Source: a virus (lineage: Duplodnaviria > Caudoviricetes). Taken from it: DNA of 64,000 nucleotides. The notes beneath the pieces were generated by a model, which made no database searches, had not been told where the DNA came from, and worked only from the letters and a program-made list of their open reading frames with translations. The position numbers were made by a program, and so were the translations under genes. Location: positions 320,001 to 384,000 of IMG/VR virus record IMGVR_UViG_3300028048_000038; one strand, 5' to 3'. Position 1 is the stretch's first letter. Each line of letters starts with the position of its first letter. Below, piece by piece: positions 36,182 to 55,617 of the stretch.

Positions 36182-36353
36182 TTAGAAAATAGATTTAATA
36201 CATTATTTTAATTATAAATATACCAAAAATACCAAAAAAATTCTATATACCCCTAAAAATAATGGAAATATAGATATTTTACTATTTGGTTTTATTGACT
36301 AATATATAAATATTTAGAAAAAGACAAATATTTATTAATAAAAAATATTAGTG

Positions 36354-37055
36354 ATGAAAAAAGCTGAATTAGAGATAATAAAGGAAGGTAAGACTGGACA
36401 TGGTATCCTTATCGAGAATGATGGATACATATCATTAGACTTTGGCAACAATAAACAGTTAAAGGAAGATATTAATAATGGTGGGTGGAATGTACCAAAT
36501 CCATTTATTGTGGATTGTATTCTGCAAAAATTTGACACTAAAAACGCAAATGGTAGAATATACCCAGAACATGTCCTAAAAAGGGAAGTTGAGAAATACC
36601 AAAAAATGGTAGCTGAAAAGATGGCTTTAGGGGAACTTAATCATCCTGCTGAAAGTACAATTGACCTTGGAAGAATTTCCCATAACATTGTTGAAATGCA
36701 TTGGGAAGGAAAAACTTTGGTTGGTAAGATAGAATTAAACGTTACTGAAGGCTTTAGAAAATATGGGATAGTATCGACTTGTGGAGACCATGCAGCACAA
36801 TTGCTTCTAATGGGATTCCGTATAGGGGTATCTTCAAGGGGTGTTGGTTCGGTTGAACAACGCCTAGGACAATACTATGTTGGTGATGATTTTGAGTTAA
36901 TAAGTGTCGATATTGTGTCAAGTCCTTCAACTCCTGGAGCTTATATTGGAAGTCCAGAATATCTACAACAATTCGTTGAAAATAACGAAACAAATAATTC
37001 AAAACCTTCTTTAAACGAAAAGATTTTAAAGATTAAAGAAGTACTTTCCTCGTAA
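36354..37055 (+). CDS. prohead core protease (T4 gp21-like)
   Basis: NANGRIYP, ALGELNHP (His), RISHNI, GVSSRGVGS (Ser), DIVSSPSTPGA. Confidence 0.93.
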   Translation: MKKAELEIIKEGKTGHGILIENDGYISLDFGNNKQLKEDINNGGWNVPNPFIVDCILQKFDTKNANGRIYPEHVLKREVEKYQKMVAEKMALGELNHPAESTIDLGRISHNIVEMHWEGKTLVGKIELNVTEGFRKYGIVSTCGDHAAQLLLMGFRIGVSSRGVGSVEQRLGQYYVGDDFELISVDIVSSPSTPGAYIGSPEYLQQFVENNETNNSKPSLNEKILKIKEVLSS

Positions 37056-37095: not shown

Positions 37096-38109
37096 ATGGG
37101 TAAAAAGAAAACAACAAATGAATTTATAAAGGAAGCCACATCCAAGCATAATGGAAAATATGACTATTCTTTAGTAGAATATAAAGGAAATAAAACAAAT
37201 GTTAGCATCATTTGTCCAATTCACGGAGAATTTCAACAAACACCAGACAGGCACTTACATAGTGGTGGATGTTTAAAATGCGCAGCAGAAAAAAGAGGGC
37301 TTAAACGTAGAATGACATTTGATGAATTCTTAGAAAAAGCTAAAAAGATACATGGAGAAAAATACTCTTATGTTAAGGAAACATTCTCTAAAGGCGGTGC
37401 TGAAACTACAATAATATGTCCTAAACATGGGGAGTTCCAACAAACACCAGATAGTCATTTACAAGGACATGGTTGTCCAAAATGTAAAAGTGAAAAACTT
37501 GCTAAACTAAGAAAAGAAGAATTTGGAGACTTTATAGAAAAAGCTAAGAAGGTTCATGGTGATAAATATGATTATTCAAAAGTTGAATATATACGTTCAA
37601 ATAAGAATGTTTATATAACTTGTCCAATACACGGTGTTTTTCCACAAACGCCAAATAGTCATTTAATGGGCGCAGGTTGCCCTTTTTGTAAAAATAGTCA
37701 CTTAGAAGAAAAAATAGCTAAAATTCTAGATAAATTAGGCGTTAATTACGTAAGAGAACAAAGATATGAATGGCTTTTTAACGACAAAAAAATGTCTTTA
37801 GACTTTTATCTACCTAAGTACAATATTGCGATAGAATGCCAAGGAGACCAACATGTTTTTTATAGAGATACATATTACAATGTCGAAGGTAAATTTGAAA
37901 AAAGAGTTGCTCTAGATAAACTTAAAAATAAGTTATGCAAAGAACATAACATACCAATAATTTACATTTTTAACAAACTTCATTCCTCTAGCAGATTAAA
38001 TGAACTGTTTGAACACATGTATGACGATGCAATATTTATTGAAGACATAAATAACGATAATAACACTTTATTAAAAGCAATAAATGAAAAAAGTAATAAG
38101 ATTAACTGA
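37096..38109 (+). mobile_element. free-standing homing-type endonuclease (DUF723-like zinc-ribbon repeats + PD-(D/E)XK)
   Basis: Three repeats of KY.YS..Y..I.CP.HG.F.QTP..HL.G.GCP.C, then LDFYLP..IAIECQG.QH. Promoter TATATTTGCA at 37084-37093. Confidence 0.75.
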
Positions 38110-38482
38110 AGGTGACTTACATGGTTTGATAACAGAATCAGTTACTAGAATTATAAATGAGATTGGTGTTTATCCAAACGGACAAACTGACCTATTCTTC
38201 GACCAAGACCAAGTTGATGAATATCGTTCATCTGCAAATGGTAGAGCTATTGAAGCTCTATTAAGGGCTGAAAGGGAATGCGGATGGAGGCATATGAATT
38301 CAAAGGATATGGGGCGTTATACAGAGTATATCTGCTATCCTATGAGTGATTATACATCAAAAGATAGAAAAACATTCATGGAGAGAATCAAGGCATATGC
38401 TCCAATAAAAGACAATATAGAATTCATCTGCTTGAGAAACCCATACATCAAGAGCTTTACAGTAAGAATTAAGAATATTTAA
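38084..38482 (+). CDS. putative head-internal protein (LTE-motif family)
   Basis: MKKVIRLTEGDLHGLITESVTRIINE; late motif at 38032-38040. Confidence 0.65.
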   Translation: MKKVIRLTEGDLHGLITESVTRIINEIGVYPNGQTDLFFDQDQVDEYRSSANGRAIEALLRAERECGWRHMNSKDMGRYTEYICYPMSDYTSKDRKTFMERIKAYAPIKDNIEFICLRNPYIKSFTVRIKNI

Positions 38483-38805: not shown

Positions 38806-39135
38806 TTATCCCATTGGTGGAAAATCATCGTAATTGGCTTCAAGGTCAATTCTATCTTGTGCCCATTCATCCTCATCGCCATTCACAATATCATCTTGGT
38901 TAATGTCATTATGAGTTTTGTCAAGAGGTTCACCAGTTATGCCAAAATCATGGTCATTTGTCATACCGTCAAATGGTGTGGAATGTTCCTCACCCTCGAA
39001 TGGTTCATAATTATTCAATACATTGTCGTTCTCACGCCAATCATTTCCCAATATATCTTCCCTCAATATCTTATCAACTGAATTCTTTATGATATTTCTC
39101 AATTCTGATTCTGTTAGTCTTATTACCTTTTTCAT
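38806..39135 (-). CDS. putative head-internal protein (LTE-motif family)
   Basis: MKKVIRLTESELRNIIKNSVDKILRE; late motif at 39152-39160. Confidence 0.65.
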   Translation of the reverse strand: MKKVIRLTESELRNIIKNSVDKILREDILGNDWRENDNVLNNYEPFEGEEHSTPFDGMTNDHDFGITGEPLDKTHNDINQDDIVNGDEDEWAQDRIDLEANYDDFPPMG

Positions 39136-42084: not shown

Positions 42085-44130
42085 TTATTTGTCATCAACA
42101 AACTTACCAAGTTCATCAATCATCTTATCAAATTCTTCATTAATCAACAATGAATCCTCATCATAAACATCTGCACGCTTGTACTCAGTTTCTCTATGCT
42201 TCTCATTGCGTTCCTTCAAAGTTGAAAGATACTTATTGAACATTTCATCAAGCTTATTGTTCTTCTGCTCATTTATCAGTGGCTTGTTTGAATATCTAGA
42301 CTCCATTGGCGCATTTGGGTCACTTCCCATATCGGCTGTTGGCATTGAACCCTCTTGGGCTGGTGCCGTTCCACTACCATCATCCATTGGTGCTCCCATA
42401 TCTCCACCCATATCAGGTGCGTCTCCCATTGGAGGAGGTGGTGCTCCCATTCCACCGCCCATTCCTCCAGAGCCACCATCCATGCCACTTTGGCCGCCTT
42501 GCATATCATCCATGTATTCTGCTCCTGGTTCACCATAGATTCTATCAACGGTATCGAAGATACCAGTCTTCTTGATAATCTGTGTGGTTTTCTCAAGTTC
42601 AGCGGCAATACCCTTTTCAAGACGTATCTCTTCAAGGTTCTCCTTAATCTCCTTTTCAGACCATTTCATAATCTGCTTAAGAGCACGAGTTTGTGACATA
42701 ACTGGAAGACCATTACCTGGGTCTGATACTGCGTCTCTAACAGCATCAATCTTCTTCTGCATGTTCTCAATCTCCAATCCTTCAGCTTGTGTTGATGGAT
42801 TATTCATCGTCAATGAGAAATTGGTCAACTCATCATTGAAACCTAACAAGAACAAGTGGATTGAAGCCACTTTTGTAAGTTCCATCAAGAATGCTTGCTG
42901 TATTCTGTTTACTGTTCTAGTGAAACGAATATCCATAAGTGCAAGATTCTTACCGTCACCAACACCTTCCTCGAAATTCAAGAATGACTTAGGTATTCTA
43001 AGTGAAGTCAACACCTTATTCTGCACAAACTTGATATCATCAAGAGCTGTCATGTTCTGACCAGCTGAAAGCGTATCAATTGGAGTTGGTGCATTCTCAT
43101 CACGTACTGGAATAAATATATCATTGTCAATTCCAAGAATATTCTTACGAAGGTCAACTTGACCAGTTACTGGGTCAATAATCGGTGTTCTCTTAAACTC
43201 ATTGGCAATTCTCTCTACATATGCTTCAACATCAGCATCATCAATAGCTCCAACGAAAATCTTATACACACGTCTTTCAACTGAACGCTCAAGACGATAG
43301 ATAAGCATCATATCTTCCATCAATGAAAGCATCCTCCAATGCCTACGTGCGCCATTAAGGTAACTCACACCATAAGGTAAATACAATGAGTTTGTGAGCA
43401 ATCTAAAATGAGCAATCTGCCAATCTCTGAATGGTACTTGTGAATTATTATCATCCAACCAAATAAACTGAGTTGATAGGTCTGCATCATCCTTTGTTAC
43501 ACCGTTAACAGCGATTGATGAGCCAGCACCATAAGGATTTTGAACCCCATTTTCAATTCTCTCCATATTGAATACTGGAAGCTGTTTCCAACCCTTAACA
43601 CCATTTTTATGGTCAATATCCAATAACATAAATTGATTACCATACTTACACATAGCACGGATAATCATCTGACCAGTTAATTGGATGTTAAGTCTATTCA
43701 CGAACAAATCCTCAAGAATGCTCTTGATTCTATCTGACTTGGAATAAACATTAACAACCATTCCCTTGTCATTAACAATCGTACTTTCCTCAGAAACAAT
43801 ATCAAGTGCTGCACTAATCTCTGGAAATGCATCCATCAAATCACCATCACGATACATTAACTTGACATTGTTCAAACCACTATATGCGGTTACAGCTAGG
43901 TTAACATTAGTCTTAACCCATCTATCCTTCAAGTACTTATCTTGCTGAAGCTCTAGTTTCTTCTGTAAATAGTCATCCCTATCTGTTGTCCTATATATTA
44001 CATTCTTACCATCACTAGGAGTCAAATCATATGAATTAATATGTGGCTCTGCTATTGATGTAGATGAAGAAGTCCAACGTCCAGTTATGGCTTTATCTAG
44101 GGCTTGAAAAACTGTATTCTTTTTTGCCAT
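42085..44130 (-). CDS. portal protein (T4 gp20-like)
   Basis: PEISAALDIVSEE, IAHFRL, LMEDMMLIYRLERSVERRVYKI.VG, IDTL..G.N..DDIKF, D.RF.R.V.RIQ. Confidence 0.93.
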   Translation of the reverse strand: MAKKNTVFQALDKAITGRWTSSSTSIAEPHINSYDLTPSDGKNVIYRTTDRDDYLQKKLELQQDKYLKDRWVKTNVNLAVTAYSGLNNVKLMYRDGDLMDAFPEISAALDIVSEESTIVNDKGMVVNVYSKSDRIKSILEDLFVNRLNIQLTGQMIIRAMCKYGNQFMLLDIDHKNGVKGWKQLPVFNMERIENGVQNPYGAGSSIAVNGVTKDDADLSTQFIWLDDNNSQVPFRDWQIAHFRLLTNSLYLPYGVSYLNGARRHWRMLSLMEDMMLIYRLERSVERRVYKIFVGAIDDADVEAYVERIANEFKRTPIIDPVTGQVDLRKNILGIDNDIFIPVRDENAPTPIDTLSAGQNMTALDDIKFVQNKVLTSLRIPKSFLNFEEGVGDGKNLALMDIRFTRTVNRIQQAFLMELTKVASIHLFLLGFNDELTNFSLTMNNPSTQAEGLEIENMQKKIDAVRDAVSDPGNGLPVMSQTRALKQIMKWSEKEIKENLEEIRLEKGIAAELEKTTQIIKKTGIFDTVDRIYGEPGAEYMDDMQGGQSGMDGGSGGMGGGMGAPPPPMGDAPDMGGDMGAPMDDGSGTAPAQEGSMPTADMGSDPNAPMESRYSNKPLINEQKNNKLDEMFNKYLSTLKERNEKHRETEYKRADVYDEDSLLINEEFDKMIDELGKFVDDK

Positions 44131-44178: not shown

Positions 44179-46056
44179 TTACTTAACTCCTCCAAATAGC
44201 CACATACAACTTCCACCTATATTACTATATTTCTCAATACGTTTCTTTGAACTGTAGAAAGGTAAACCAGTCTTAGGTGCAATAGTCTCTCCACTCTTCA
44301 TCTTTGGTTTATTCATACTGATTGCACGATTCATCATATACGCATTAAGAATAGCCTTATCCTTATTGGCTGTATTTTGTATCCTATTAACAGTGTACTG
44401 CATAACGAACAATCCCATAGCCAATGCTGTAAGAGTATCGTCATGAGCACCGTCTTGGTGGTCAATTCTAGCTGTCTCACCCTTGAATATCCAAGTCTCA
44501 AGTTCGTTGATTACCCTAGCTGAACGAATCTTGAACTCATTGTTACGGACAAGACCTGCGAAGTTTGCAAGTACTGGATAACGGTTTCCTTGGAAGTGGA
44601 AACCTGGAAGTTTATCCGTATATCCATCATAGTTCTTTGTTGACCTCTGAACCATATATGTCTTTTGGTTTGAATCCTCATAATACATGTTTTTATAACC
44701 CATGTTTATAAGTGTTAATATGGCAGCATCTCCTTGACCACCAGTACAGTCAACGACAATGAATGCATCATTATACATTGTTGCATATTGATAACATAAT
44801 GCTCCAATATCATCACCCAATTTCTTTCCAACATATTCTCCAACTTGCTCGATAATCGGTAGTCCATTCTCGTCCCTACCATCCATATCAATAATCTCAA
44901 TGGCTGTTCTATCGGCAGATACGCCTCTTGATGGGTCACATGCAAGAATATAACGGTGTCCCTCAATAGGACGTTTCCAAAACCAAGTCTCTTCAACTAA
45001 TGGGTCATGAAAATCATCAAGTGGCTCTCTTGTGTTAAGCTTCTCTTGCATTTCAATGAACTCTGGAGCAACAACGTTGTCGGCAGAACCCATGAACGAT
45101 ACATCAAGCTCTTGGGCAATCTTCATTGAGTCATTGTTGAACTGCTTGCACATTTCATCATACCAAGGCGCTGTAGGTTTCCAACCATTGTGTTCAAGTC
45201 TAGCCCATCTTTCCTCATCATACTTCACTCCTCCCTCACTGTCGATTATTGGGTCTTGGTCAAACTCCCATTCACCAGTATCTTCATTTTTCTTCTTCCA
45301 CACAAGATACTTGTTGAATCTTGGGTCTTGATACCAACGGAACTGTACTGCCACGAAGTTATTCTCATGGCTTAATGCTTGCCTATATGTGTTATAGTAA
45401 AGCTCGTCTCTACCGTTAGGGGTAGATACCATAACAGTCTTAGAATTAGGGTTAGATGCCATAGTTGCAGCAGCAGTGGTAAACGCAGCCACACCTTCCT
45501 CAATAAACGCTGCCTCGTCAAGAATCAAGACGGATACAGCAGAGATACCACGAGAAGCATTAGGACCAGATGCACGTGCAATGATTCTACAACCATTGAA
45601 CAACTTCAGCTCACCTTTTGCATCCTTTAAAAAAATTGATTTTAGATTTTTTTCTGAATTAGGGTCAACTGAGAAATATTCATTACCCCAATACCATCTA
45701 GGAACTTGCTCAAGGAAATCTCTTACCTTTATGATAATTTCTTGCGCTTGTTCAAGCTTATTGGCAATACACAAAACAGTCTCAGGTGCCTCTGCTGATG
45801 CAAATGCACACTGGGCTGCTGCCCAAGCACTTGATAGTGTTGTAATACCACACTGTCTTGGCTTAATTGCAACAACGTTTCTGTTTTCCGCAAGAGCCTT
45901 GAGGAACGCTCTCTGACGTGGAAAACAGTGGAATTGTGTTTTCTTACCCTTAGTTGCATTAAAGGTAGAGAAATACTTTTCTATAAATGTAATTCTTGAT
46001 TTGTCGGCATAGCATTGAGCATAATCGCTTGCCATTTGTTGTCTATCGTAAATCAT
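44179..46056 (-). CDS. terminase large subunit (T4 gp17-like)
   Basis: KPRQCGITT, LILDEAAFI (Walker B), VSTPNG, AQEL..SF, ACDPSRG, HDDTLTAL nuclease motifs. Confidence 0.95.
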   Translation of the reverse strand: MIYDRQQMASDYAQCYADKSRITFIEKYFSTFNATKGKKTQFHCFPRQRAFLKALAENRNVVAIKPRQCGITTLSSAWAAAQCAFASAEAPETVLCIANKLEQAQEIIIKVRDFLEQVPRWYWGNEYFSVDPNSEKNLKSIFLKDAKGELKLFNGCRIIARASGPNASRGISAVSVLILDEAAFIEEGVAAFTTAAATMASNPNSKTVMVSTPNGRDELYYNTYRQALSHENNFVAVQFRWYQDPRFNKYLVWKKKNEDTGEWEFDQDPIIDSEGGVKYDEERWARLEHNGWKPTAPWYDEMCKQFNNDSMKIAQELDVSFMGSADNVVAPEFIEMQEKLNTREPLDDFHDPLVEETWFWKRPIEGHRYILACDPSRGVSADRTAIEIIDMDGRDENGLPIIEQVGEYVGKKLGDDIGALCYQYATMYNDAFIVVDCTGGQGDAAILTLINMGYKNMYYEDSNQKTYMVQRSTKNYDGYTDKLPGFHFQGNRYPVLANFAGLVRNNEFKIRSARVINELETWIFKGETARIDHQDGAHDDTLTALAMGLFVMQYTVNRIQNTANKDKAILNAYMMNRAISMNKPKMKSGETIAPKTGLPFYSSKKRIEKYSNIGGSCMWLFGGVK

Positions 46057-46129: not shown

Positions 46130-46166
46130 AAAAAAAGAGCAACCACAACTGTGATTACTCTTTTTG
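46130..46166 (-). terminator. intrinsic terminator
   Basis: AAAAAAGAGCAACCAC..GTGATTACTCTTTTT hairpin. Confidence 0.5.
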
Positions 46167-47831
46167 TCTTAGCATTGCCATATAGCACATATCATCATGA
46201 TATACATAGATGTTTGGGTTTTGAGCTAGTTTAGCATAAACCTTTGCTATATGTTCCTTATTTATTCTTCTTCCCTCTCCGCTATAGATTGCACCGAACT
46301 CATAGATAAGCTTTGTGTATATCTTTGGTGCTAAACCTAAACGTTGGATTCCTTCATTCAATATAATGTGTATCTGAAGCATTGGTACTCTCTCCTCCTC
46401 ACTGATTCTAATCTTAACGCTCTGTGCCATAAGGAGAATCATCTGTCTTGGCATTATCTCGCCATTGATAGTTACAATCAAGTCCTCAGTGACACCATTA
46501 ACGTTTCCCTCAAGGAAATCAATGTTATCTACGGTTGCAGATTGTACCAATTGTTGATAATATTCAATAGGCTTCTGAGGTTCTGCCTCATATTGCCCCA
46601 TTACATCTGCATCCTCGCCCTCTTCAATTACATCACCCTCTGATTCATCTGAATCTATCTCATATCCATTTGTCTCAGCTCCAGTGAAATAAGAATCCTT
46701 AATCAATGATTTATCAATATTCTTCGCATTTATCCTATTGGTAAACTGTTGATAACCATTATCATATTCAGCATTCTTCATTAATTGGTCGATTATCTCA
46801 TTTCCCCTATTGGTATTTGAAAGGATTTCCTTCACGCTTGCGCTGAACTCTTCATTTGGCTGCTTAATGAGGCTTGTAAACATGTATGGTATCATATTGG
46901 TGTCTTCCACCCTACCAAATATCTTGTTCCATAGCGTAACACCAAATCTCAAGTCCCAAGGCTCTGCAAGCACAAAATCAGCCTTTTTAACGACAAACAT
47001 CGCCTTATCCTTATTACTTGGTAGCCCATGTGCTGAAAACAGCTCAAACAAGCCTTTAATGGTCTCTTGGAGCAACAATGGGAATATAATACCTTGTGCC
47101 TTTATTGTGGTTCTCTCACCAACACCACCAAGATGCACTTCAACATATGAGCCTTGCATTGGTTTTTCATCACTCATTTCCTCTTTCTTGGTAAAAAGAA
47201 GATAATCATTGATTGCGATAATCTTCATATACAATGGAATGAGGTCTCTATTAATTCTATCAATATCCTCTATATACAAGCCCAATATTTTTGAATAAGT
47301 ATATGCTGCGCCTTGAATTAATGAATCAATGAAACGTCTCTTTTCAACAGCCTTATCAAACAACTCAATATCATTCACATCATCGAATGTGTATGTAATC
47401 TTATCATCCGATTCTGGTTTCAACCTTATTGCATTTTTGAACTTTATCTTATCTACAAGCTTGCACTTTAGGTTAAGCATTTCCTCTGGGATTGCAAACA
47501 ACCTATTAACGGCATTCTCGCAAATCTTCTCAAGTGTATCTCTAATTGGAAGCTCCATATCTCTACACATCTTGAGAGCATTGCTTAACTCACTCATAAG
47601 ATAGTCTTCATCAAGGCTTTCCAAGCCCAATTTCTCTATTGCATCACACACTTCACCGAATCTAACCTTTAGCAAAGTATAGTCAAAAGGATAGTCACCA
47701 CCACTAGGGAACATACTATTGTCTCCCAATGATGTCTCATGTGCCTTAACGCTTTTGAATAGAAATTGAGGCAAAAGCCTCTTATTCAAAACATTGGCAA
47801 TTGTATTTTCTTTTAGATATATCTTCTTCAT
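46155..47831 (-). CDS. head-associated protein with C-terminal GNAT-like domain
   Basis: MKKIYLKE N-terminus; C-terminal IHIILNEGIQRLGLAPKIY..IYSG resembles the acetyl-CoA motif QxxGxA. Confidence 0.5.
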   Translation of the reverse strand: MKKIYLKENTIANVLNKRLLPQFLFKSVKAHETSLGDNSMFPSGGDYPFDYTLLKVRFGEVCDAIEKLGLESLDEDYLMSELSNALKMCRDMELPIRDTLEKICENAVNRLFAIPEEMLNLKCKLVDKIKFKNAIRLKPESDDKITYTFDDVNDIELFDKAVEKRRFIDSLIQGAAYTYSKILGLYIEDIDRINRDLIPLYMKIIAINDYLLFTKKEEMSDEKPMQGSYVEVHLGGVGERTTIKAQGIIFPLLLQETIKGLFELFSAHGLPSNKDKAMFVVKKADFVLAEPWDLRFGVTLWNKIFGRVEDTNMIPYMFTSLIKQPNEEFSASVKEILSNTNRGNEIIDQLMKNAEYDNGYQQFTNRINAKNIDKSLIKDSYFTGAETNGYEIDSDESEGDVIEEGEDADVMGQYEAEPQKPIEYYQQLVQSATVDNIDFLEGNVNGVTEDLIVTINGEIMPRQMILLMAQSVKIRISEEERVPMLQIHIILNEGIQRLGLAPKIYTKLIYEFGAIYSGEGRRINKEHIAKVYAKLAQNPNIYVYHDDMCYMAMLRQKE

Positions 47832-48335: not shown

Positions 48336-48368
48336 AAAAAAGGGACACTCTAAAGTATCCCTTTTTAT
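48336..48368 (-). terminator. intrinsic terminator
   Basis: AAAAAGGGACAC..GTATCCCTTTTT hairpin. Confidence 0.6.
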
Positions 48369-48369
48369 A

Positions 48370-48867
48370 TTATTTAAAGTATGGAGATTGGAATGGTGTC
48401 ATTGGTTGATTCCTATATTCTTTTGGCATCTTCTTTTCGGGTCTCTTTGTACCCTCATGGTCATCCAAAACATCATTTATGACCTCATCAATTACACCCT
48501 TGTAGTTGAAGGTTGATTCCATTGGCATTCCACCGTCTTGAGGCATGGCATCTGAATCATCAGCAATGCTCTTCGCATACTTTACGACTGCTGCCTTATC
48601 CTCTGCTGACATGTTATTAACAATGCTGTCTAGTTCATTATCTTCCATGTTTCCACCTTCCATTGGAGGTTGTTGGTCATCCATTGGAGGTTCGCCTCCA
48701 CCCATAGGGTCATTCATCCCCATATCATCAGCACCCATTGGTGGCATTGGAGCATTATCTAAATCACCCATGCCATCCACACTACCACCTAGAGGGTTGC
48801 TGTTTGGTATTTCCAATTTTGTTGGTCTCTCCTCAAAAGCAATTTCGTTTAGTTTATGTTTTTTTTT
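48370..48867 (-). CDS. probable -1 frameshift extension of the 560-aa head protein
   Basis: Frame is open from the A9 run at 48859-48867 and has no ATG near the junction; it is the -1 frame of the upstream ORF. Confidence 0.6.
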   Translation of the reverse strand, partial: KKKHKLNEIAFEERPTKLEIPNSNPLGGSVDGMGDLDNAPMPPMGADDMGMNDPMGGGEPPMDDQQPPMEGGNMEDNELDSIVNNMSAEDKAAVVKYAKSIADDSDAMPQDGGMPMESTFNYKGVIDEVINDVLDDHEGTKRPEKKMPKEYRNQPMTPFQSPYFK

Positions 48868-50531
48868 AAACGATTTAAAGCCTCTGCAATTGCGTTGTCA
48901 ATTGCTTGTGGGTCGATTTCGAATGGAGCACCATCACCAATCTTCTCACCGTAAGGAGTGTCATTCTTAACTGAATCGTCATTCATATCATAGTAACCTG
49001 GGAATTCCTTCATATCCTTTGGAGGTAAATCCATAACTACTTTCTGATATGCTGGGTGTTTACCAAAATCATCCAACTTGTTCATATTACCACTTGGAAC
49101 ACGACCTGCATCCTTGAATGGGGTCATACCTTCCTCGTTTACTTTCTGCTTGCCCATAGCTTTTCTATATGCAGCAGTTTCATAAATCTGAACACCGTTG
49201 TTTCTTTGTTTGCTTTCCATTGGCATTTCGTCATCGATTGGTTCTTCACCACCGAAGTCATCACCTTCACCCTCGTCACCGAAGATATCATCGTCTCCAT
49301 AAGCGCTAGCGTCTACACTTGGTTCACTAATACCCAACTTGTCAGCAATCTGTGAAAGGAGCTCTTCCATTGCACTAAGACGTGATTCAACATCATCCTC
49401 ATATACATCTTCTCCTTCGTCACCAATTGGCTCTTCACCGCCAAGGTCATCACCAAGTTCGTCATCAATTGGTTCGTCTTCAGCGTCTAAATCGTCACCG
49501 AGTTCATCACCCATTGGCTCACCTTCACCCTCTTCAGGAGCTGGAGCACCATCAACATCCTCGCCACCGAAGTCATCGAAAGCCTCGTCAATCTGTTTGC
49601 CCTTCTCACCATCGAAAGGTTTGTTGTTATCATCAGATGGTCCTTCACCAACGCCTACTTCTGGTTTGTTCTGGTCATCGGTATCATGCATAGAAGTACC
49701 ATGATTCTCAACAACACCATTCTTCATTTCACCAGTATTAGTTACCTTCTTGTCACCATCGTCAATATTACGTGCCTCTGGACCGTCAAAAGGTGCGCTA
49801 TCACCAATCTCAGTACCATGAGACTTATCCATGTAGTCATCGTTACCACGATTCCAACCAAGAACCTCTTCCTCATTTACAGTCTCGCACTGACATGGGT
49901 TTTTGCCACATTTAGGACAAGTCTTATCCTCAGTCATGCTAGTTGGAATCTCTGCGTTTGTATATCCAGCGTTTGCAGAAGCCGCATCACCGCATTCTTC
50001 TACACTGCTAGAGATATTGTCCTTCTGTGAATTCTTGATGTCCTTATCACAGATGCCATTTGCACACTCTTTCTTACCCTCTGCAATCTTCATTGCATTT
50101 TCCATGATTTGACGTGAACGATTGATTTCGTTTCTCATCTTATCAGTTGCCTCAACTACAACAGTCTCTTTCTTGTCCAAATCCCAAGAACTGATGTTAT
50201 AGTCTTGTTTGTTTGCAGCCTCTTTAAGAGACATCATCTTCATATCGAAGTTCTTCTGTGCGTCAGCAAAAGAATCATATTGATAATCCTTTCTGTTTCT
50301 GAAACCACCAATGTAGTTGAAATCTTCTTTTACAAGATTCTGTTTGTTAGAAGCAGACTTGATGTAATATTTAGTACCCTCACGTACAATACCATATACA
50401 TTACCATCAGCACCAAGCTTCTGGTTCTCTACTGAACTGTATGGAGCTTTCTTACTCTCAGTTTGAAGACCATATCCCATCAAAGCCTTCATTCTAGCAA
50501 TCTGCTCATTTGTATTCATTTTATTATCCAT
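48849..50531 (-). CDS. acidic scaffold-like head protein (560 aa)
   Basis: Acidic low-complexity sequence with many xxE sites, motifs shared with the scaffold, and a late motif at 50569-50577. Confidence 0.65.
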   Translation of the reverse strand: MDNKMNTNEQIARMKALMGYGLQTESKKAPYSSVENQKLGADGNVYGIVREGTKYYIKSASNKQNLVKEDFNYIGGFRNRKDYQYDSFADAQKNFDMKMMSLKEAANKQDYNISSWDLDKKETVVVEATDKMRNEINRSRQIMENAMKIAEGKKECANGICDKDIKNSQKDNISSSVEECGDAASANAGYTNAEIPTSMTEDKTCPKCGKNPCQCETVNEEEVLGWNRGNDDYMDKSHGTEIGDSAPFDGPEARNIDDGDKKVTNTGEMKNGVVENHGTSMHDTDDQNKPEVGVGEGPSDDNNKPFDGEKGKQIDEAFDDFGGEDVDGAPAPEEGEGEPMGDELGDDLDAEDEPIDDELGDDLGGEEPIGDEGEDVYEDDVESRLSAMEELLSQIADKLGISEPSVDASAYGDDDIFGDEGEGDDFGGEEPIDDEMPMESKQRNNGVQIYETAAYRKAMGKQKVNEEGMTPFKDAGRVPSGNMNKLDDFGKHPAYQKVVMDLPPKDMKEFPGYYDMNDDSVKNDTPYGEKIGDGAPFEIDPQAIDNAIAEALNRLKKNIN

Positions 50532-50600: not shown

Positions 50601-52778
50601 TTATTGGTATTGATACTGAGTTTGTTGTGGCATTGTACTAAAATTATCATCTACCGTACCCATTTGATTATCTTTTCCTCTTGTATCGAAATTGACTTGT
50701 TTAATATTTGGTGTGAACTTATCCAATGCCCTTATATAGAGAACACTCTTAGGTTTCATTTCAATGCTATCCCATTGTATGCAAATGCAGTAGTTATATC
50801 CAATCAACTGTGATAACACCTTATCATAATAACATTTATACAACTTACCATTTTCCTTTGATTGCATTAACTTACCATAATTAGAAACAAAGTCCTTGAG
50901 TGCCTTTCTTTCAGCATCCCAACGTTTCTTATATGGATTATGTTCACTGTTTCCATCACCAACCCATTCCTCATTTAATAAGGTAATAGCATTAGAATAC
51001 TTTCTGATTGATTCTGCAACATTTCCTACCAATTTAATAGTTTCACCATCAAAATATCTTACAACATCATTTATCACTCTTCTTGGGTTAGCTCCATCCC
51101 ATTCAGCATACTCGTATGAATTATCTCCATCACCAATCTCTACAGTTACATTACCCTTACTATATTGAATTAACCTTAACATTGGGTTAACTTGTTCCCT
51201 AGTAGGTTTCTTGAAGAGATTTATAGAACTCCAAGTGTTTGAACAATGGATTCTTATTGCACCCATTCTAATGAAGTCTGCCATATTGATGTTTAGACCG
51301 CTTTTAGTAGTCATATCGGCATCCCAATTAAGGTTTCCAATGTCTCTGTGGTCAACACCCCTTCTACCTCTAAGATGAGAGGTATCAGTATTTCCAGTTA
51401 CCATATGTCTTCCACTGAAGTCAAGCATACTACCATCTGGAAGTATATAACCACATTCCCTTATATCATTGGTGACACCGAATCTCTCTTTAGCCAACGC
51501 AAACACATCAACATTGTTATTACTCTCTACTGATTCAGTTATTGAATTGTTTCTATCATAAACAGTTGAGAACAATTTGAACAACTTATCAAGATATTGT
51601 GTCCTACGTAGAATCTTATAGACGATATTTCCAGCTCCACTCTCGCCATTGCTCTCAAGGCTTGACTTTCTCATTGCCTTAACCTTCTTCCAAAGATACT
51701 GAGCATCGTCACCGATTGTCTCAATCTTATGTGAATCGTCTGTAGCATTAAGAGCATTATACATGTCATCAATGATTGTCATGATTTCTGCTGCCTTATC
51801 CTTGATTGAGAACTTGTCAAGACCAATTGGTTTTATGCTGCCCATATCTGGTTTCTTAACCCAATCATTTTCCTCAAGGTCGTATATACCACCACTCTGA
51901 GGCATTTCACCTAGATTCTGAACATATAATTCAACTGGGAATCCCAATATCGTCAAGTCGCTATGTTCGTTGTTCCATTCATTCTTCTTGGCATCAAGAT
52001 AATCACGAACAAATTCTGTCTTCTCATCAATCTCATCGAAATCAACAATAAGGTGAAGGTCGATGTCAGAATACTTAGACCAATTGAAATTGCAGATTGA
52101 GCCAGTTAAGATAATTCCACTTGGTTTAACCCAAGTTAAATTAACAAATTCCCAAAAATCGTCTGCAATATCCAATAATCTTAGTCTAACTCTAGAATCC
52201 AAAGTATTATCATCTACCCATATTGGCGCTAATTCACTCTTTTTCTTAAAGGATGAAAGGTCAATATCAGAAGAATCTACCTCAAAATCAAGATTTTCAA
52301 TTATGTTCTTGATTTGGCTTTCATTGACAATAACACTTTTATTATTTTTCTTTGATTCATATTTATCCAAATTAACTATGACTGGTTTGTTGTTTTTATC
52401 AATCTTCAACCATTTGTAGTACTTATATGCCATACTTCTTTTTTCAAAATAACGTGGCATAATGTTAATATCAATAAGGTTGATTACTGCCCAGTTGCTC
52501 CATTCATTTGGTCTCAGTTTCTTTGCTCTATATATGAATTCTTGTGGTATTTTAGAATAATTTACACTTGTTTCTTCTACTGTGTGGCAATAATTACCTC
52601 CAATTGGTGGATTATTGCTTTCTTGTCCAAGTTCAAATTCATCAACCTCTGCTGAAACTTCTTCAACATTATGGGAAACACCATTATGGCTGACATCATC
52701 CATGCCAACCATAATTTCATTTATTCTATCCTTTAAAGTTAATAATCTATTCTCTCCGAATGTAATAGTTTTTCCCAT
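50601..52778 (-). CDS. multidomain protein with Pol-beta-type nucleotidyltransferase domain
   Basis: IILTGSICNFNWSKYSDIDLHLIVD..PVELYVQ fits hG[GS]x9-13DxD; second domain ECGYILPDGSMLDFSG..DHRDI; xxE linkers between modules. Confidence 0.7.
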   Translation of the reverse strand: MGKTITFGENRLLTLKDRINEIMVGMDDVSHNGVSHNVEEVSAEVDEFELGQESNNPPIGGNYCHTVEETSVNYSKIPQEFIYRAKKLRPNEWSNWAVINLIDINIMPRYFEKRSMAYKYYKWLKIDKNNKPVIVNLDKYESKKNNKSVIVNESQIKNIIENLDFEVDSSDIDLSSFKKKSELAPIWVDDNTLDSRVRLRLLDIADDFWEFVNLTWVKPSGIILTGSICNFNWSKYSDIDLHLIVDFDEIDEKTEFVRDYLDAKKNEWNNEHSDLTILGFPVELYVQNLGEMPQSGGIYDLEENDWVKKPDMGSIKPIGLDKFSIKDKAAEIMTIIDDMYNALNATDDSHKIETIGDDAQYLWKKVKAMRKSSLESNGESGAGNIVYKILRRTQYLDKLFKLFSTVYDRNNSITESVESNNNVDVFALAKERFGVTNDIRECGYILPDGSMLDFSGRHMVTGNTDTSHLRGRRGVDHRDIGNLNWDADMTTKSGLNINMADFIRMGAIRIHCSNTWSSINLFKKPTREQVNPMLRLIQYSKGNVTVEIGDGDNSYEYAEWDGANPRRVINDVVRYFDGETIKLVGNVAESIRKYSNAITLLNEEWVGDGNSEHNPYKKRWDAERKALKDFVSNYGKLMQSKENGKLYKCYYDKVLSQLIGYNYCICIQWDSIEMKPKSVLYIRALDKFTPNIKQVNFDTRGKDNQMGTVDDNFSTMPQQTQYQYQ

Positions 52779-52797: not shown

Positions 52798-53115
52798 TTA
52801 TCCGTTATCTACAACTTCGCCAGCGCCAGTCTCACGACTACAATCGCAAATGCCTTGTCTAAGGTCTGTATACTTAGCACCACTCTCTGAGATAAATGAT
52901 ACAGTTTCAATATACTTGTTATCCTTCTCAGTTGGAATTGGAGCATCGTGCCCAATAGGTCCATCGTTATAAGCAAGGGTCTCCATACCACGAGTGGTCA
53001 TTTTTCCATTTTCACTGAGTGTTTCGTTATAGTTTTCAACATCAACGTAAAGAAGTGGGTTATCTGTATCATAACCATATCCTTCATACATATAATCCAA
53101 AATATTACTGTTCAT
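52798..53115 (-). CDS. hypothetical protein (start revised to 53115)
   Basis: MNSNILDYMYE; late motif at 53148-53156. Confidence 0.55.
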   Translation of the reverse strand: MNSNILDYMYEGYGYDTDNPLLYVDVENYNETLSENGKMTTRGMETLAYNDGPIGHDAPIPTEKDNKYIETVSFISESGAKYTDLRQGICDCSRETGAGEVVDNG

Positions 53116-53185
53116 ATTTTTTCTTTTATTTTTATAAATTATTTCTCTATAAATATTTGGTAATAACAAAAAAAAGGTACTGAAA

Positions 53186-54373
53186 TCAATCAGCACCTTC
53201 ATAATGAAGCACAAAATCAGATAATTTCTCCAAATCATCATTTAACACCATCACTGCAATATCTCTATCACGATTATATGGTATATAGCATTTTCTTGGA
53301 TTTTTAGTGACAACCTCTTTTCCTTTTACCATTTCCAAGACAAATTCTACTAATTTTTTCCACTTGACGAAAATCACCTTCTTCATCGCTCTAAACGCAA
53401 TATAATCAGCCTTAACGTAGAATCTATCTTCACGTCCTTGCTTATCTACCAAACGAACCCAATGGATTGTATCGTCATATCCATCATCAAATCTCCATAC
53501 TTTGTTTAGTCCCTTAACATCAATGCCGAATTTATTTCCATCAAGGGTATTCCACCAAAAGTCAATATGGTCTTTATAATCTTCATCCCTAGAAGCCCTT
53601 TTAACACTGCCACCCATCTGGCTTGATAGCAATTCCATTATAAGCTCTTCATCAGATTTTCCATCTTTAAGACACTTCTCTTTTTGGGCTTTGATATTTG
53701 TTGAGATTTTACCTTCATTTGCCGTAACTATTCCATGATATTCAGATAAGTCGATATAGATTTGTTTTTTCAATAATATATTAATTGGTCTTTCAGCGTA
53801 TTTCTCGCTATATCTGAATGATATCCCATTCACAAATTCCGATGTCTTCACACATCCCCTTTCCCTGATAGCCTCATCTTGTCTCGCAAGCATGTCTAAA
53901 GTCCAACCCTTACTCTCAAGAAAATCAGCAATCTTTTGCCTAGATACAAGACACCATTCAAATTCTTTAATATTGTCCCTTGTTATCGAATCTGTATTAT
54001 ATCGTCTTTTCTCCTTATTATACTCTATATCTGCTTTTAATATCCATCCAAAGAGATAGTATTGTGTTGACTTTGAACTATCTAGAAACCATCCACAAAC
54101 TTTAGTACCCCTTTTGGATATGAATGACAATTCCAATGCAAAACTATCAAGGTTTGTATTAGCGTATCTAGCAGCCACCTTCTCATCCACAATAACCCTA
54201 TCTATTTTCTTGTCATGCAAGCTTAAAATAAGGTCAGAGCCTCTCATTTGCTCGTCATAGCCATCAGTTCTAGCAAACTCAGTAAAAATCTCCTTATTCG
54301 AATATAAATGTTCATCTAGGAATGCTGCAATCTCACGTTCAACAGCCATATCATATTTTCTATTACTCTCCAT
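53186..54373 (-). CDS. protein with two tandem PD-(D/E)XK-like nuclease domains
   Basis: QMRGSDLIL..VDEK..ALEL in the N-half; DYKDHIDFW..GIDVK..ADYIAF in the C-half. Confidence 0.55.
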   Translation of the reverse strand: MESNRKYDMAVEREIAAFLDEHLYSNKEIFTEFARTDGYDEQMRGSDLILSLHDKKIDRVIVDEKVAARYANTNLDSFALELSFISKRGTKVCGWFLDSSKSTQYYLFGWILKADIEYNKEKRRYNTDSITRDNIKEFEWCLVSRQKIADFLESKGWTLDMLARQDEAIRERGCVKTSEFVNGISFRYSEKYAERPINILLKKQIYIDLSEYHGIVTANEGKISTNIKAQKEKCLKDGKSDEELIMELLSSQMGGSVKRASRDEDYKDHIDFWWNTLDGNKFGIDVKGLNKVWRFDDGYDDTIHWVRLVDKQGREDRFYVKADYIAFRAMKKVIFVKWKKLVEFVLEMVKGKEVVTKNPRKCYIPYNRDRDIAVMVLNDDLEKLSDFVLHYEGAD

Positions 54374-55617
54374 TAACCGACTAATAATGGTGCTTTGATT
54401 ATTGGGTCTGGCTCATAATCAATTATTTTAAAGTCTTCATATTTGAAATCTTCAATTGTTTTTTGATTTCCTTCTATTATCAATTGTGGTATCTTATCAG
54501 AACCTTTTCTAGATAATTGTTCGTTAACAGCATCAAAATGTGCCTCATATATATGACAATCTCCAAGTGAAGCTATTAACTCGTCTGGTATCATATTTAC
54601 TAATTTAGCTATCATGTGAGTTAGAATGGTATACGAAACCGTATTAAATGGTTGCCCTAAAAACTCGTCATTACTACGCATGCTATACATGCAACTCAGC
54701 CCATACTTGGGAATATCTGCAATATCATAATTACTGCCATCGTTAGGCATTGATATGTCTGCGCCATCCTTTGTATTCTTGGAATATTCTTTGAGCCAAT
54801 CGTAATACTTCTTTGGTATTTGGCATTTCATATATCTTTCGTTGAAAATCTTCATTCTCTCAACATTTGATAATTCCCTTGTATAGAATTGCATCATAAC
54901 ATGGCAAGGAGGTAATGCCATATCTTCAATTTGGTCTGGATTAAATGCCACACATAACATTCTCCTATCATTTGGATTTGTTTTCAATGTGTCAATAATA
55001 TTCTTGATTTGGTCTACATGATTACTTCCAAATGCTCTCCATTGCGTTCCATATACAGGACCTAAGTCACCAAATCTATATCTCGACATGAATGGTCCCT
55101 TTATTTCAACCTTCTGTAAGGTTAAGTCCAAGAACTCCTCCTTTGTAATGTTCTTAAGCCATTCGTCATCGTTTTGTCTAAGTTCATTCTCAATCCAATA
55201 TTCGAATATTGGTTGTCTACCCATCTCATCATCATTGGTACATACAAGATATTCTTTTGGAAATATACGCTTAACTTGATAACTGTTATTTGCTGTTTTA
55301 ATAAATCTACCACATATATTTGTTTTAAACCAACGATATGCATCATCGTCCCATATATGTACACCATTTCTAACAAGGTATTCAATATTCATACTACCAT
55401 GAGAGTTATATGGTCTTTGTAAGAACCAAAGTAATTCATGAATAACCCCTTTGGTAAACACTTTCTTGGTCGTTAAAATTGGAAATCCTTCCTTAAGATT
55501 AAATCTCAGTTGTCTCCCAAATACGGACTTAACACGTCCAGCTCTAGTGTCCTTTTCAACACCATTCTCCATTATATCTCGTAATAAAGATAGATATTGT
55601 TCGTCTGCTTTTGTCAT
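54373..55617 (-). CDS. thyA: thymidylate synthase with insertions
   Basis: FPILTTKK, ELLWFL, IWD, LGPVYG.QWR, LPPCH, RSND.FLG.PFN, GDCHIY..H. Confidence 0.95.
   Translation of the reverse strand: MTKADEQYLSLLRDIMENGVEKDTRAGRVKSVFGRQLRFNLKEGFPILTTKKVFTKGVIHELLWFLQRPYNSHGSMNIEYLVRNGVHIWDDDAYRWFKTNICGRFIKTANNSYQVKRIFPKEYLVCTNDDEMGRQPIFEYWIENELRQNDDEWLKNITKEEFLDLTLQKVEIKGPFMSRYRFGDLGPVYGTQWRAFGSNHVDQIKNIIDTLKTNPNDRRMLCVAFNPDQIEDMALPPCHVMMQFYTRELSNVERMKIFNERYMKCQIPKKYYDWLKEYSKNTKDGADISMPNDGSNYDIADIPKYGLSCMYSMRSNDEFLGQPFNTVSYTILTHMIAKLVNMIPDELIASLGDCHIYEAHFDAVNEQLSRKGSDKIPQLIIEGNQKTIEDFKYEDFKIIDYEPDPIIKAPLLVG

Follow-up and report, generated by a model that had tools for sequence, protein, structure and literature searches.

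A modular jumbo-phage protein carrying a predicted nucleotidyltransferase between prohead-protease-type junctions is a candidate for capsid delivery

The virus genome recorded in IMG/VR as IMGVR_UViG_3300028048_000038 is complete, with 409,537 bp and inverted terminal repeats. We analyzed its bases 320001–384000, a stretch of 64,000 nucleotides that we call the window and to which coordinates refer unless marked as genome positions. Our subject is one gene, P0001, a single 725-amino-acid (aa) open reading frame (ORF) at window positions 50601–52778 on the minus strand, stop codon included. P0001 encodes a modular protein of the polyvalent type. A constant leader and a nearly constant C-terminal module enclose cassettes that are shuffled among its relatives, one of them a nucleotidyltransferase (NTase) with the fold and the catalytic residues of the Pol-beta superfamily. 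The cassettes are delimited by conserved junctions, the genome encodes a prohead protease of the T4 type, and the position of the gene close to the packaging genes is kept in related phages. We consider it probable that P0001 is a phage-type polyvalent protein that is packaged into the head, owes its processing to the prohead protease and not to an embedded peptidase, and serves to deliver the NTase.

The reading frame, which the initial annotation had given as 725 aa without naming a strand, is open on the minus strand, whereas translation of the plus strand of 50601–52778 meets stops throughout and yields no open frame. A word-indexed search at E ≤ 1e-3 returned 561 relatives of 398–1269 aa, many of them on contigs of 200–420 kb. 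When P0001 is aligned by BLAST with the best 120 of these, the matches fall into sharp blocks at aa 1–70, 73–139, 157–420, 424–590 and 589–711, and relatives that are 80–95% identical in the common blocks gain extra blocks of 200–300 aa between them or lose some. Using phmmer models of the five blocks, we found at least 40 module orders in the collected sequences, always with the leader first and nearly always with the C-terminal module, module D, last; the shortest architecture (~450 aa) consists of leader, NTase and module D. In P0001 itself, the leader (aa 1–69; 52572–52778) is followed by a small module, M2 (aa 70–139), and a multi-site linker (aa 140–161, with sites KYE/S, VNE/S and IIE/N, where the slash marks the junction), which together span 52296–52571. 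The linker has a predicted local distance difference test score (pLDDT) of 43–68. Next come the NTase cassette (aa 162–415; 51534–52295), an alpha/beta domain with the signature GYILPDG..DHR that we call module C (aa 416–589; 51012–51533), and module D (aa 590–725; 50604–51011). M2 is present in only 21 relatives. The cassettes found across the family include the NTase, the GYILPDG..DHR domain, ART-PolyVal (PF18760) and unknown modules; ART-PolyVal matched 7 of 36 relatives at 73–79 bits, above the cut-off. For P0001, Pfam, NCBIfam and PADLOC gave no family above cut-off, and the Pfam scan found no ART-PolyVal, zincin MPTase, MuF or LPD domain. No paralogue of any P0001 module was found elsewhere in the 409-kb genome, and a megablast search of 12 kb against cultured phages gave no match.

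The evidence that bears most directly on processing comes from the junctions between modules. The initial annotation had divided the protein at leader-like linkers, and every peptide that it quoted is present in the translation: RINE at aa 18–21, VEE at aa 38–40 and 67–69, IVNESQIKNIIE at aa 150–161, SITESVES at aa 412–419, VAES at aa 587–590 and LLNEE at aa 600–604. The module borders drawn from these linkers coincide with true cassette breakpoints in the BLAST comparisons with relatives. In an alignment of 36 family members of differing architecture, E161, E415, E603 and E604 do not vary at all, and S412 and I413 hardly do. Counted as unique sequence contexts over all collected proteins, the junction before the NTase has Glu at P1 in 184 of 184 cases, V, I, L or M at P3 in 159 of 184 and Asn at P1′ in 183 of 184. 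The end of the NTase reads Y-D-[KR]-x-N-S-[IL]-x-E, with I or L in all 186 contexts and Glu in 158 of them, and continues with S, G or N. Module C ends in G-N-[VIL]-x-E/S or in ...YE/S, and module D starts at x-N-E/S-[IV]-K-K-Y (Glu in 82 of 93).

At least five unrelated contexts precede the NTase: the leader itself (...GGNYCHVEE/N), a C-like module (...YENKKGEKTIDE/N), an ART cassette (...SDVMGE/N), module M2 (...IKNIIE/N) and leaders of only 8–10 residues (MSTKPIIE/N). The ART-PolyVal cassette is likewise flanked, by VIIE/N or ITE/N before it and [VL]M[GS]E/N after it. What is conserved at the NTase junctions is an amino-acid pattern in which P3, P1 and P1′ are constant and P2 is variable. 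The junctions fall in low-confidence stretches of the structural models (pLDDT 43–68 at aa 150–169, 50–61 at aa 410–425 and 52–62 at aa 586–615), and since they lie in such linkers, the conserved Glu is not explained by the needs of the fold. Module C provides a further comparison. Inside MuF_C/LPD38 proteins of 4000–6500 aa from other phages, it ends in ...GNVRF/S, with RFS linkers instead of NVxE/S, so the Glu is a trait of the linkers of the P0001 lineage and not a need of module C. Cassette shuffling, conserved [I/V/L]-x-E linkers and the S77 protease gene described next give good comparative support to the polyprotein design with protease-type junctions that the initial annotation had proposed.

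The proposed processing enzyme is a T4 gp21-type prohead serine protease (Peptidase_S77) at 36351–37055 on the plus strand; the match to PF03420 (genome 356501–356953, window ~36501–36953) scores 82 bits, above the cut-off. T4 gp21 cleaves after Glu in L/I-x-E, the internal proteins of T4 are brought into the prohead by a 10-residue N-terminal capsid-targeting sequence (CTS) that is then removed, and from Alt, an ADP-ribosyltransferase that is injected, a propeptide is removed at each terminus (PMC9026906).

The leader of P0001 is a candidate capsid-targeting propeptide with sites at I-N-E21 and V-E-E69. Its signature, MGKT[IV]x[IF]N[EQ][DN]xL[IL]x[LI]KE ... E[YF]E[IL]GxExxNPP[VI]GGNYxH(T)VxE, is kept in 130 relatives regardless of the cargo behind it, and in minimal forms the leader ends directly at the next cassette. 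Within the first 17 to 24 residues, most family members have [LI]-K-E ending at residue 17, where P0001 reads LKD; its own site, I-N-E, comes at residue 21. The idea that the leader may act as a targeting sequence draws on the analogy with the T4 CTS (PMC9026906). Four small ORFs of the genome share a near-identical start, MKK[VI]IRLTE[SG][DE]LH..[IL][IV].[EN]SV.RI[LI].E, that is related to the leader and has [IL]-x-E sites. Two lie at genome positions 244704–245162 (minus) and 253138–253614 (minus) and two in the window, at 38084–38482 (plus) and 38806–39135 (minus), where they adjoin the portal and protease genes. By their sequence, all four are candidates for CTS-bearing head cargo.

Relatives with a single cassette resemble CTS cargo in their ends, with leaders of 8–55 residues and, after [IL]xE, tails of 7–13 residues. 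The NTase block alone has 1538 homologues of 145–462 aa. Standalone NTases at 50–60% identity are 275–305 aa long, with leaders of 8–55 residues ending in ...Y-x-H-[IV]-x-E/N and a tail of ~12 residues after NS-I-x-E. A more distant standalone clade at ~40% identity (IMG/VR loci L035–L052 and others; 265–290 aa) starts with MDIKKITE/Q, a leader of 8–9 residues, and ends in ...DKSLTLDE followed by 7–9 residues. To judge from these termini, the members of this clade look like proteins with a propeptide-like extension at each end, as in T4 Alt.

The NTase cassette consists of a catalytic alpha/beta domain and a C-terminal four-helix domain. Its only strong family match is PHROG 36119 (function unknown; E 1e-41, aa 180–409). 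The TGS..SDIDLH motif, which had been placed at about 52050–52115, lies at aa 225–242 (52053–52106); it contains the catalytic signature G226-S227-x10-D238-I-D240 (52059–52103), of the form hG[GS] followed by [DE]h[DE]h on the next strand. A third carboxylate, E283 (51930–51932), lies on the strand formed by aa 280–288 (model strand 131–139). G226, S227, D238 and D240 are invariant both in 36 family members and in 64 diverse homologues; E283 is invariant in the former and nearly so (≥90%) in the latter. Since the catalytic residues are conserved in both alignments, we predict that the enzyme, with its complete active-site set, is probably active. An AlphaFold2 model of aa 150–425, built from a 64-sequence alignment, has a mean pLDDT of 89.9 and shows a helix, a mixed sheet that carries G226-S227, D238/D240 and E283 on its strands, and the four-helix domain. 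Searched against the Protein Data Bank (PDB) with Foldseek, the model matched only Pol-beta NTases at E ≤ 1e-3: CdnE (6wt9; 7e-5 over 276 columns) and AAD(9) (6xz0, 5.6e-4; 6sxj). Weaker matches were to CdnD/C, AadA, MNT, OAS1, DrrA, LinB and FAM46. A first wide search with VIA-align was swamped by generic helical bundles (residues 168–268), and a second look at the PDB gave NTases, with Z of 6.0–7.0 over 87–125 residues of the catalytic domain at root-mean-square deviations of 3.5–4.6 Å (the MNT-type 2rff and 1ylq, TENT5/FAM46, CdnD/E, the MNT protein 8xeo, OAS2 and AadA). The GS/DxD region thus folds, in the model and by these two comparisons, as the Pol-beta NTase that had been read from its motif.

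Sequence searches are much less informative. The Pfam family NTP_transf_2 (PF01909) matched P0001 at 14.3 bits (E 0.054), below the gathering cut-off of 21 bits; precomputed tables flag it in a few homologues, and 1 of 36 relatives matched at E 2.6e-4. Searches of PDB sequences with the protein and both profiles gave nothing significant, the AMPylase DrrA appearing only at E 0.15. By sequence, the NTase appears nearest to the MNT/kanamycin-NTase (NTP_transf_2) clade, with which it shares a weak Pfam match, VIA Z of 6.3–7.0 to 2rff, 1ylq and 8xeo, and a GS-x(9-10)-SDIDL spacing. This GS-x9-SDIDL spacing we take, on our reading of the Pfam alignment, to be that of the clade. MNT antitoxins AMPylate HEPN toxins (PDB 7aer, 8xeo). 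The P0001 NTase differs from these minimal proteins of ~100–140 aa in being 254 aa long with an extra four-helix domain, and its overall shape is nearer to that of CD-NTases and ANT; Pfam, PHROGs and NCBIfam found no HEPN family in the neighboring ORFs. The CD-NTases of CBASS (CdnE, CdnD and CdnC) have the same two-domain architecture of NTase and helical domain, and one of them, 6wt9, is the best full-length Foldseek match. However, identity to them is 10–14%, Z is ~6 on the catalytic domain, and there is neither a CBASS context nor a PADLOC match.

What might the enzyme do? The initial annotation had proposed tRNA/RNA end repair, protein nucleotidylation or interference with nucleotide signals, and the fold searches separate none of these. 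The likeliest single activity, which we name tentatively, is transfer of NMP (AMP) onto a host protein or other macromolecule, by likeness to ADP-ribosylation by Alt and to AMPylation of HEPN nucleases by MNT proteins, and in agreement with Iyer et al. (2017; PMC5512222), who took the NTases of polyvalent proteins to be protein modifiers. A small molecule may also be the acceptor. Tailing or repair of RNA 3′ ends seems unlikely, and synthesis of a nucleotide signal or decoy a little less likely again.

Module C (GYILPDG..DHR) and module D were modeled together (aa 416–725, 79 sequences), giving a pLDDT of 86 and two well-defined domains with a floppy linker between them. The pLDDT of module C exceeds 93 over the domain. 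The second motif singled out in the initial annotation, GYILPDGSMLDFSG..DHRDI, lies within it at aa 443–480. Across module C (aa ~425–580), E441, D448, D453, R473, D476, H477, R478, R509, N520 and Q529 are near-invariant, a conserved polar set that suggests an enzyme or a nucleotide-binding site. Searched inside the two-domain model only, module C matched nothing significantly, whether in the PDB, Pfam, PHROGs, NCBIfam or the ESM Atlas. For the two modules together, the best Foldseek match in the PDB has E 0.17, searches of the Atlas by shape reach a TM score of at most 0.37, the feature search of the ESM Atlas gave no usable match, and BFVD returned only uncharacterized large phage proteins. 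An exhaustive HMMER search found 1302 matches to module C, which recurs at ~50% identity inside proteins of 4000–6500 aa. Two of these giants were scanned; both contain LPD38 and one also MuF_C. The gene of one giant, P0272 (GCA_016648615.1), immediately precedes genes for a P22-type portal and an SU10-type capsid protein. In the giants P0272–P0349 (metagenomic, 4000–6500 aa), N[IV]RFS or [DN]IRFS motifs recur on both sides of the module C copies, and this RFS motif may be the MuF_C/LPD38 lineage's own processing or linker signal.

Module D comprises a helix and a small barrel (domain ~615–705) like those of SH3, Tudor and KOW domains. Its VIA Z to such barrels is ~5 (model residues 219–278), a weak match to a common fold. 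It occurs in 214 proteins of 83–1963 aa with many different cargos, nearly always at the extreme C terminus, and this constant position suggests a role in anchoring or assembly.

The genomic setting is that of a gene at the edge of the head genes. Downstream of P0001 and on the same strand lie the large terminase, TerL (44179–46056; PHROG 2), and a T4-type portal (42085–44130; Portal_T4, E 1e-87), 4.5–8.6 kb away; the major head protein (32613–34631) is further downstream, as are tail sheath, tube and baseplate hub. Given that TerL lies 4.5 kb downstream and that the gene keeps its place at the upstream margin of the packaging/head block, the placement of P0001 in the head gene cluster by the initial annotation was roughly right. 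Four unannotated genes stand between P0001 and TerL: an acidic low-complexity ORF of 560 aa (48849–50531, minus), which is the next gene downstream, two small ORFs, and an ORF of 558 aa (46155–47831, minus) just upstream of TerL. None has a family above cut-off in Pfam, PHROGs or NCBIfam. The arrangement is syntenic in relatives: related contigs (364 and 393 kb) have, in this order, a P0001-like gene, four ORFs (~560, 140, 160 and 560–716 aa), TerL and a T4-type portal. On the other side of P0001 are a small ORF, an ORF of 395 aa and thymidylate synthase (ThyA), with a ClpB-like ATPase on the opposite strand. Two hairpins that match the consensus of intrinsic terminators (consensus match only) lie on the minus strand. 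One, at 53173–53200 (11-bp stem and T-run), splits the ThyA unit from the P0001 unit, and the other, at 48337–48366 (13-bp stem and T-run), would close the latter. Together they would bracket a unit of the small ORF, P0001, the acidic 560-aa ORF and a 148-aa ORF.

Several neighbors have features of their own. The 560-aa protein (48849–50531) is extremely rich in D, E and G, with a low-complexity middle and no family match, and is possibly a prohead-core or internal protein. The 558-aa protein and its 716-aa orthologue in a related phage (L004:16158–18308) are 41% identical over their first ~400 aa, while the C-terminal part is swapped; that of the orthologue is an ART/PARP-like domain (ART-PolyVal 29 bits, PARP E 2.6e-4). 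This comparison suggests that the 558-aa gene is a second gene of the head block whose cargo can be exchanged. The ORF that follows the protease directly (37096–38109, plus) was considered as a gp22-like scaffold and rejected: it has three Zn-ribbon-like repeats of the form CPxHGxFQQTPxxHLxGxGCxxC followed by a C-terminal region, and in sequence resembles an inserted (perhaps homing) nuclease between head genes. The thymidylate synthase (54373–55617, minus) has 414 aa, of which aa 1–413 align to only ~280 positions of the PHROG profile, implying an insertion of ~100 extra residues. For the 147-aa ORF at 52798–53241 (minus), the listed start overlaps the hairpin at 53173–53200 and the end of the previous gene, and the true start is probably further downstream.

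If P0001 is packaged and processed in this way, how would the pathway run? The late timing, packaging, cutting, ejection and NTase substrate are steps that we infer. P0001 would be expressed late, at the same time as the genes for head and packaging, and the leader, perhaps with the constant SH3-like module D, would bring it into the prohead core. The S77 protease would then cut after Glu at [I/V/L]-x-E, at E21 and/or E69, at E153/E161, at E415, at E589 and perhaps at E603/604, yielding a 254-aa NTase, a 174-aa module C piece and a C-terminal piece of ~120–136 aa. Like T4 Alt and the internal proteins, these products would be retained inside the capsid and reach the host along with the DNA, so that the NTase would act at the very start of infection.

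Several points weigh against this reading. The cleavage specificity of the phage's S77 protease is taken over from T4 gp21, and some junctions break the strict T4 rule: many D starts have R or N at P3 (...YRNE/S), KYE141 has K, and other sites have V or M there. The number of [LI]xE sites in P0001 is at chance level (8 versus 7.3 expected from composition), so it is position-specific conservation that has to carry the case; such counts are uninformative per protein, with no enrichment in any head gene. BLAST breakpoints lie near [ILVM]xE in 44% of cases versus 25% of random positions, a difference of little weight, as the counts are non-independent and the ends of high-scoring segment pairs fuzzy. 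Peptidase_S77 is present in 21 of 23 searchable NTase-bearing viral contigs, including 9 of 9 with at least 90% completeness (completeness is 29% and 52% for the two that lack it); this co-occurrence fits the proposal but is confounded by shared ancestry and has no base rate alongside. No other ORF of the genome contains the long leader motif (GGNYxHVxE), which hence does not act as a general targeting signal in this phage. In cultured phages, very distant homologues of the NTase (Synechococcus phage S-N03, 237 aa; Maribacter phages, Colly_1) are leaderless and are surrounded by replication genes or genes of unknown function, so the NTase is not cargo everywhere. No NTase subfamily stands out, as the matches to CD-NTase, ANT, MNT, TENT5 and OAS proteins are about equally weak (Z 6–7). 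Finally, we found no cultured relative with virion proteomics.

These points leave room for other explanations. P0001 may be packaged, lose only its leader and work as an intact multidomain enzyme, in which case the junction residues would be domain-boundary or linker features, or only some would be cut. The N4 virion RNA polymerase is transferred without processing, as are several plasmid polyvalent proteins (PMC5512222), and the constant pairing of NTase and module D in minimal forms could mean that the two are one working unit. We nevertheless regard an intact enzyme as unlikely, given that every junction has an invariant P1 Glu and a hydrophobic P3 whichever cassette is its neighbor, that the junctions lie in low-pLDDT linkers, and that the corresponding linker in the other polyvalent lineage has a different motif. 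It is to a similar degree unlikely that P0001 never enters the virion and is a cytoplasmic multidomain enzyme for host takeover, RNA repair or nucleotide metabolism, its cassettes being shuffled by recombination and its junction peptides being recombination-prone linkers. Such an enzyme would be at home beside the non-structural upstream neighbors, ThyA and the ClpB-like ATPase; the leaderless NTases of the cultured cyanophage and Maribacter phages are also consistent with it, and jumbo phages use Pol-beta NTases in RNA end repair (PMC7824862). However, a terminator-like hairpin separates P0001 from the ThyA unit, and the place that is kept across relatives is beside TerL and the portal. Recombination-prone linkers would also have to account for the conservation of an amino-acid pattern (P3, P1 and P1′ fixed, P2 free) and not of a fixed stretch. 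ART-PolyVal and a domain common to MuF_C/LPD38 proteins point to head-delivered cargo, and P0001 has no Pfam match to RNA-repair NTase families at E ≤ 1.

A structural role within the prohead is a further alternative. T4 core proteins, which are cut at several L/I-x-E sites, for the most part do not stay in the head (PMC9026906), and the very acidic low-complexity product of the gene next to P0001 recalls core proteins. P0001 might thus be a core or scaffold protein like gp22, gp67 and gp68 of T4, with pieces that are expelled before DNA packaging and enzyme domains without a host role. We consider this very improbable, as hundreds of sequences keep the NTase catalytic residues and the polar set of module C without change, ART-PolyVal and cassettes like it are effector enzymes, and high cassette turnover fits conflict with the host, not capsid geometry. 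Our preferred reading remains that of packaged, protease-processed cargo.

Each component of this reading has a precedent: polyvalent proteins (PMC5512222), CTS-targeted and gp21-processed cargo (PMC9026906) and the multiply cleaved ejection proteins of giant phages (PMC5694885) are all known. Phage-type polyvalent proteins have been argued to be packaged and injected (Iyer, Burroughs, Anand, de Souza and Aravind, 2017; PMC5512222). Like them, P0001 has several effector-type domains in one chain, a highly variable architecture and a gene beside portal and terminase; some of its relatives contain ART-PolyVal, and its module C is shared with MuF_C/LPD38 giants near a portal. In contrast to them, for which an embedded MPTase was proposed as processor, the P0001 junctions match the prohead protease rule. 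Moreover, the NTases in the 2017 survey (PMC5512222) were of the minimal kind and confined to the conjugative-element type, whereas P0001 is of the phage type with a Pol-beta NTase. With T4 Alt and IPI–III (PMC9026906), P0001 shares a T4-type portal, an S77 protease, a leader ending in [IL]-x-E and an enzyme as cargo, and with Alt also the short propeptides at both ends of its single-cassette NTase relatives and the ART domain of others. However, T4 cargo proteins have a single domain and a CTS each, whereas P0001 has many domains behind one leader, one constant C-terminal module and internal sites; the leader sequences differ, and for P0001 cleavage and injection are predictions from sequence. 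The ejection and inner-body proteins of phiKZ, 201phi2-1 and SPN3US (PMC5694885) are likewise head-internal proteins of giant phages that are cut after Glu, some at several sites, by a gp21-related protease. They differ in that the proteases are S80 enzymes with an S/A/G-x-E rule and that there are no cassette-shuffled strings of enzymes, and we found no sequence relationship to P0001. What differs here is the delimitation of cassettes by prohead-protease-type sites, a Pol-beta NTase in a phage-type polyvalent protein, constant ends around a shuffled middle, and two uncatalogued domains. Beyond Iyer et al. (2017), a non-exhaustive search of the literature found no link between polyvalent proteins and prohead-protease processing.

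A broader proposal, which we regard as possible and somewhat short of probable, is that a "plug-and-play" system of effector polyproteins operates in jumbo phages whose heads are of the T4 type, in which any [I/V/L]-x-E-flanked enzyme cassettes between a constant leader and a constant C-terminal anchor are loaded into the capsid and released by the prohead protease as separate injected enzymes. The PHROG-36119 NTase and the GYILPDG..DHR domain would then be two undescribed classes of first-minute host-takeover or anti-defense enzymes, and the system, if real, would be a double-stranded DNA phage counterpart of the polyproteins of RNA viruses. On this reading, our analysis nominates two large uncharacterized families, the two-domain NTase and module C, as early-acting effectors. 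It also offers a sequence rule for recognizing capsid cargo in metagenomic phages (leader, [ILV]xE junctions and C-terminal SH3-like anchor), and this rule could also help to load foreign proteins into large capsids. If P0001 is processed as proposed, the processing of polyvalent proteins would shift from an embedded metallopeptidase to the morphogenetic protease, and the diversification of the injected enzymes of huge phages would be explained by the swapping of protease-delimited cassettes within one gene, not by a targeting signal for each protein.

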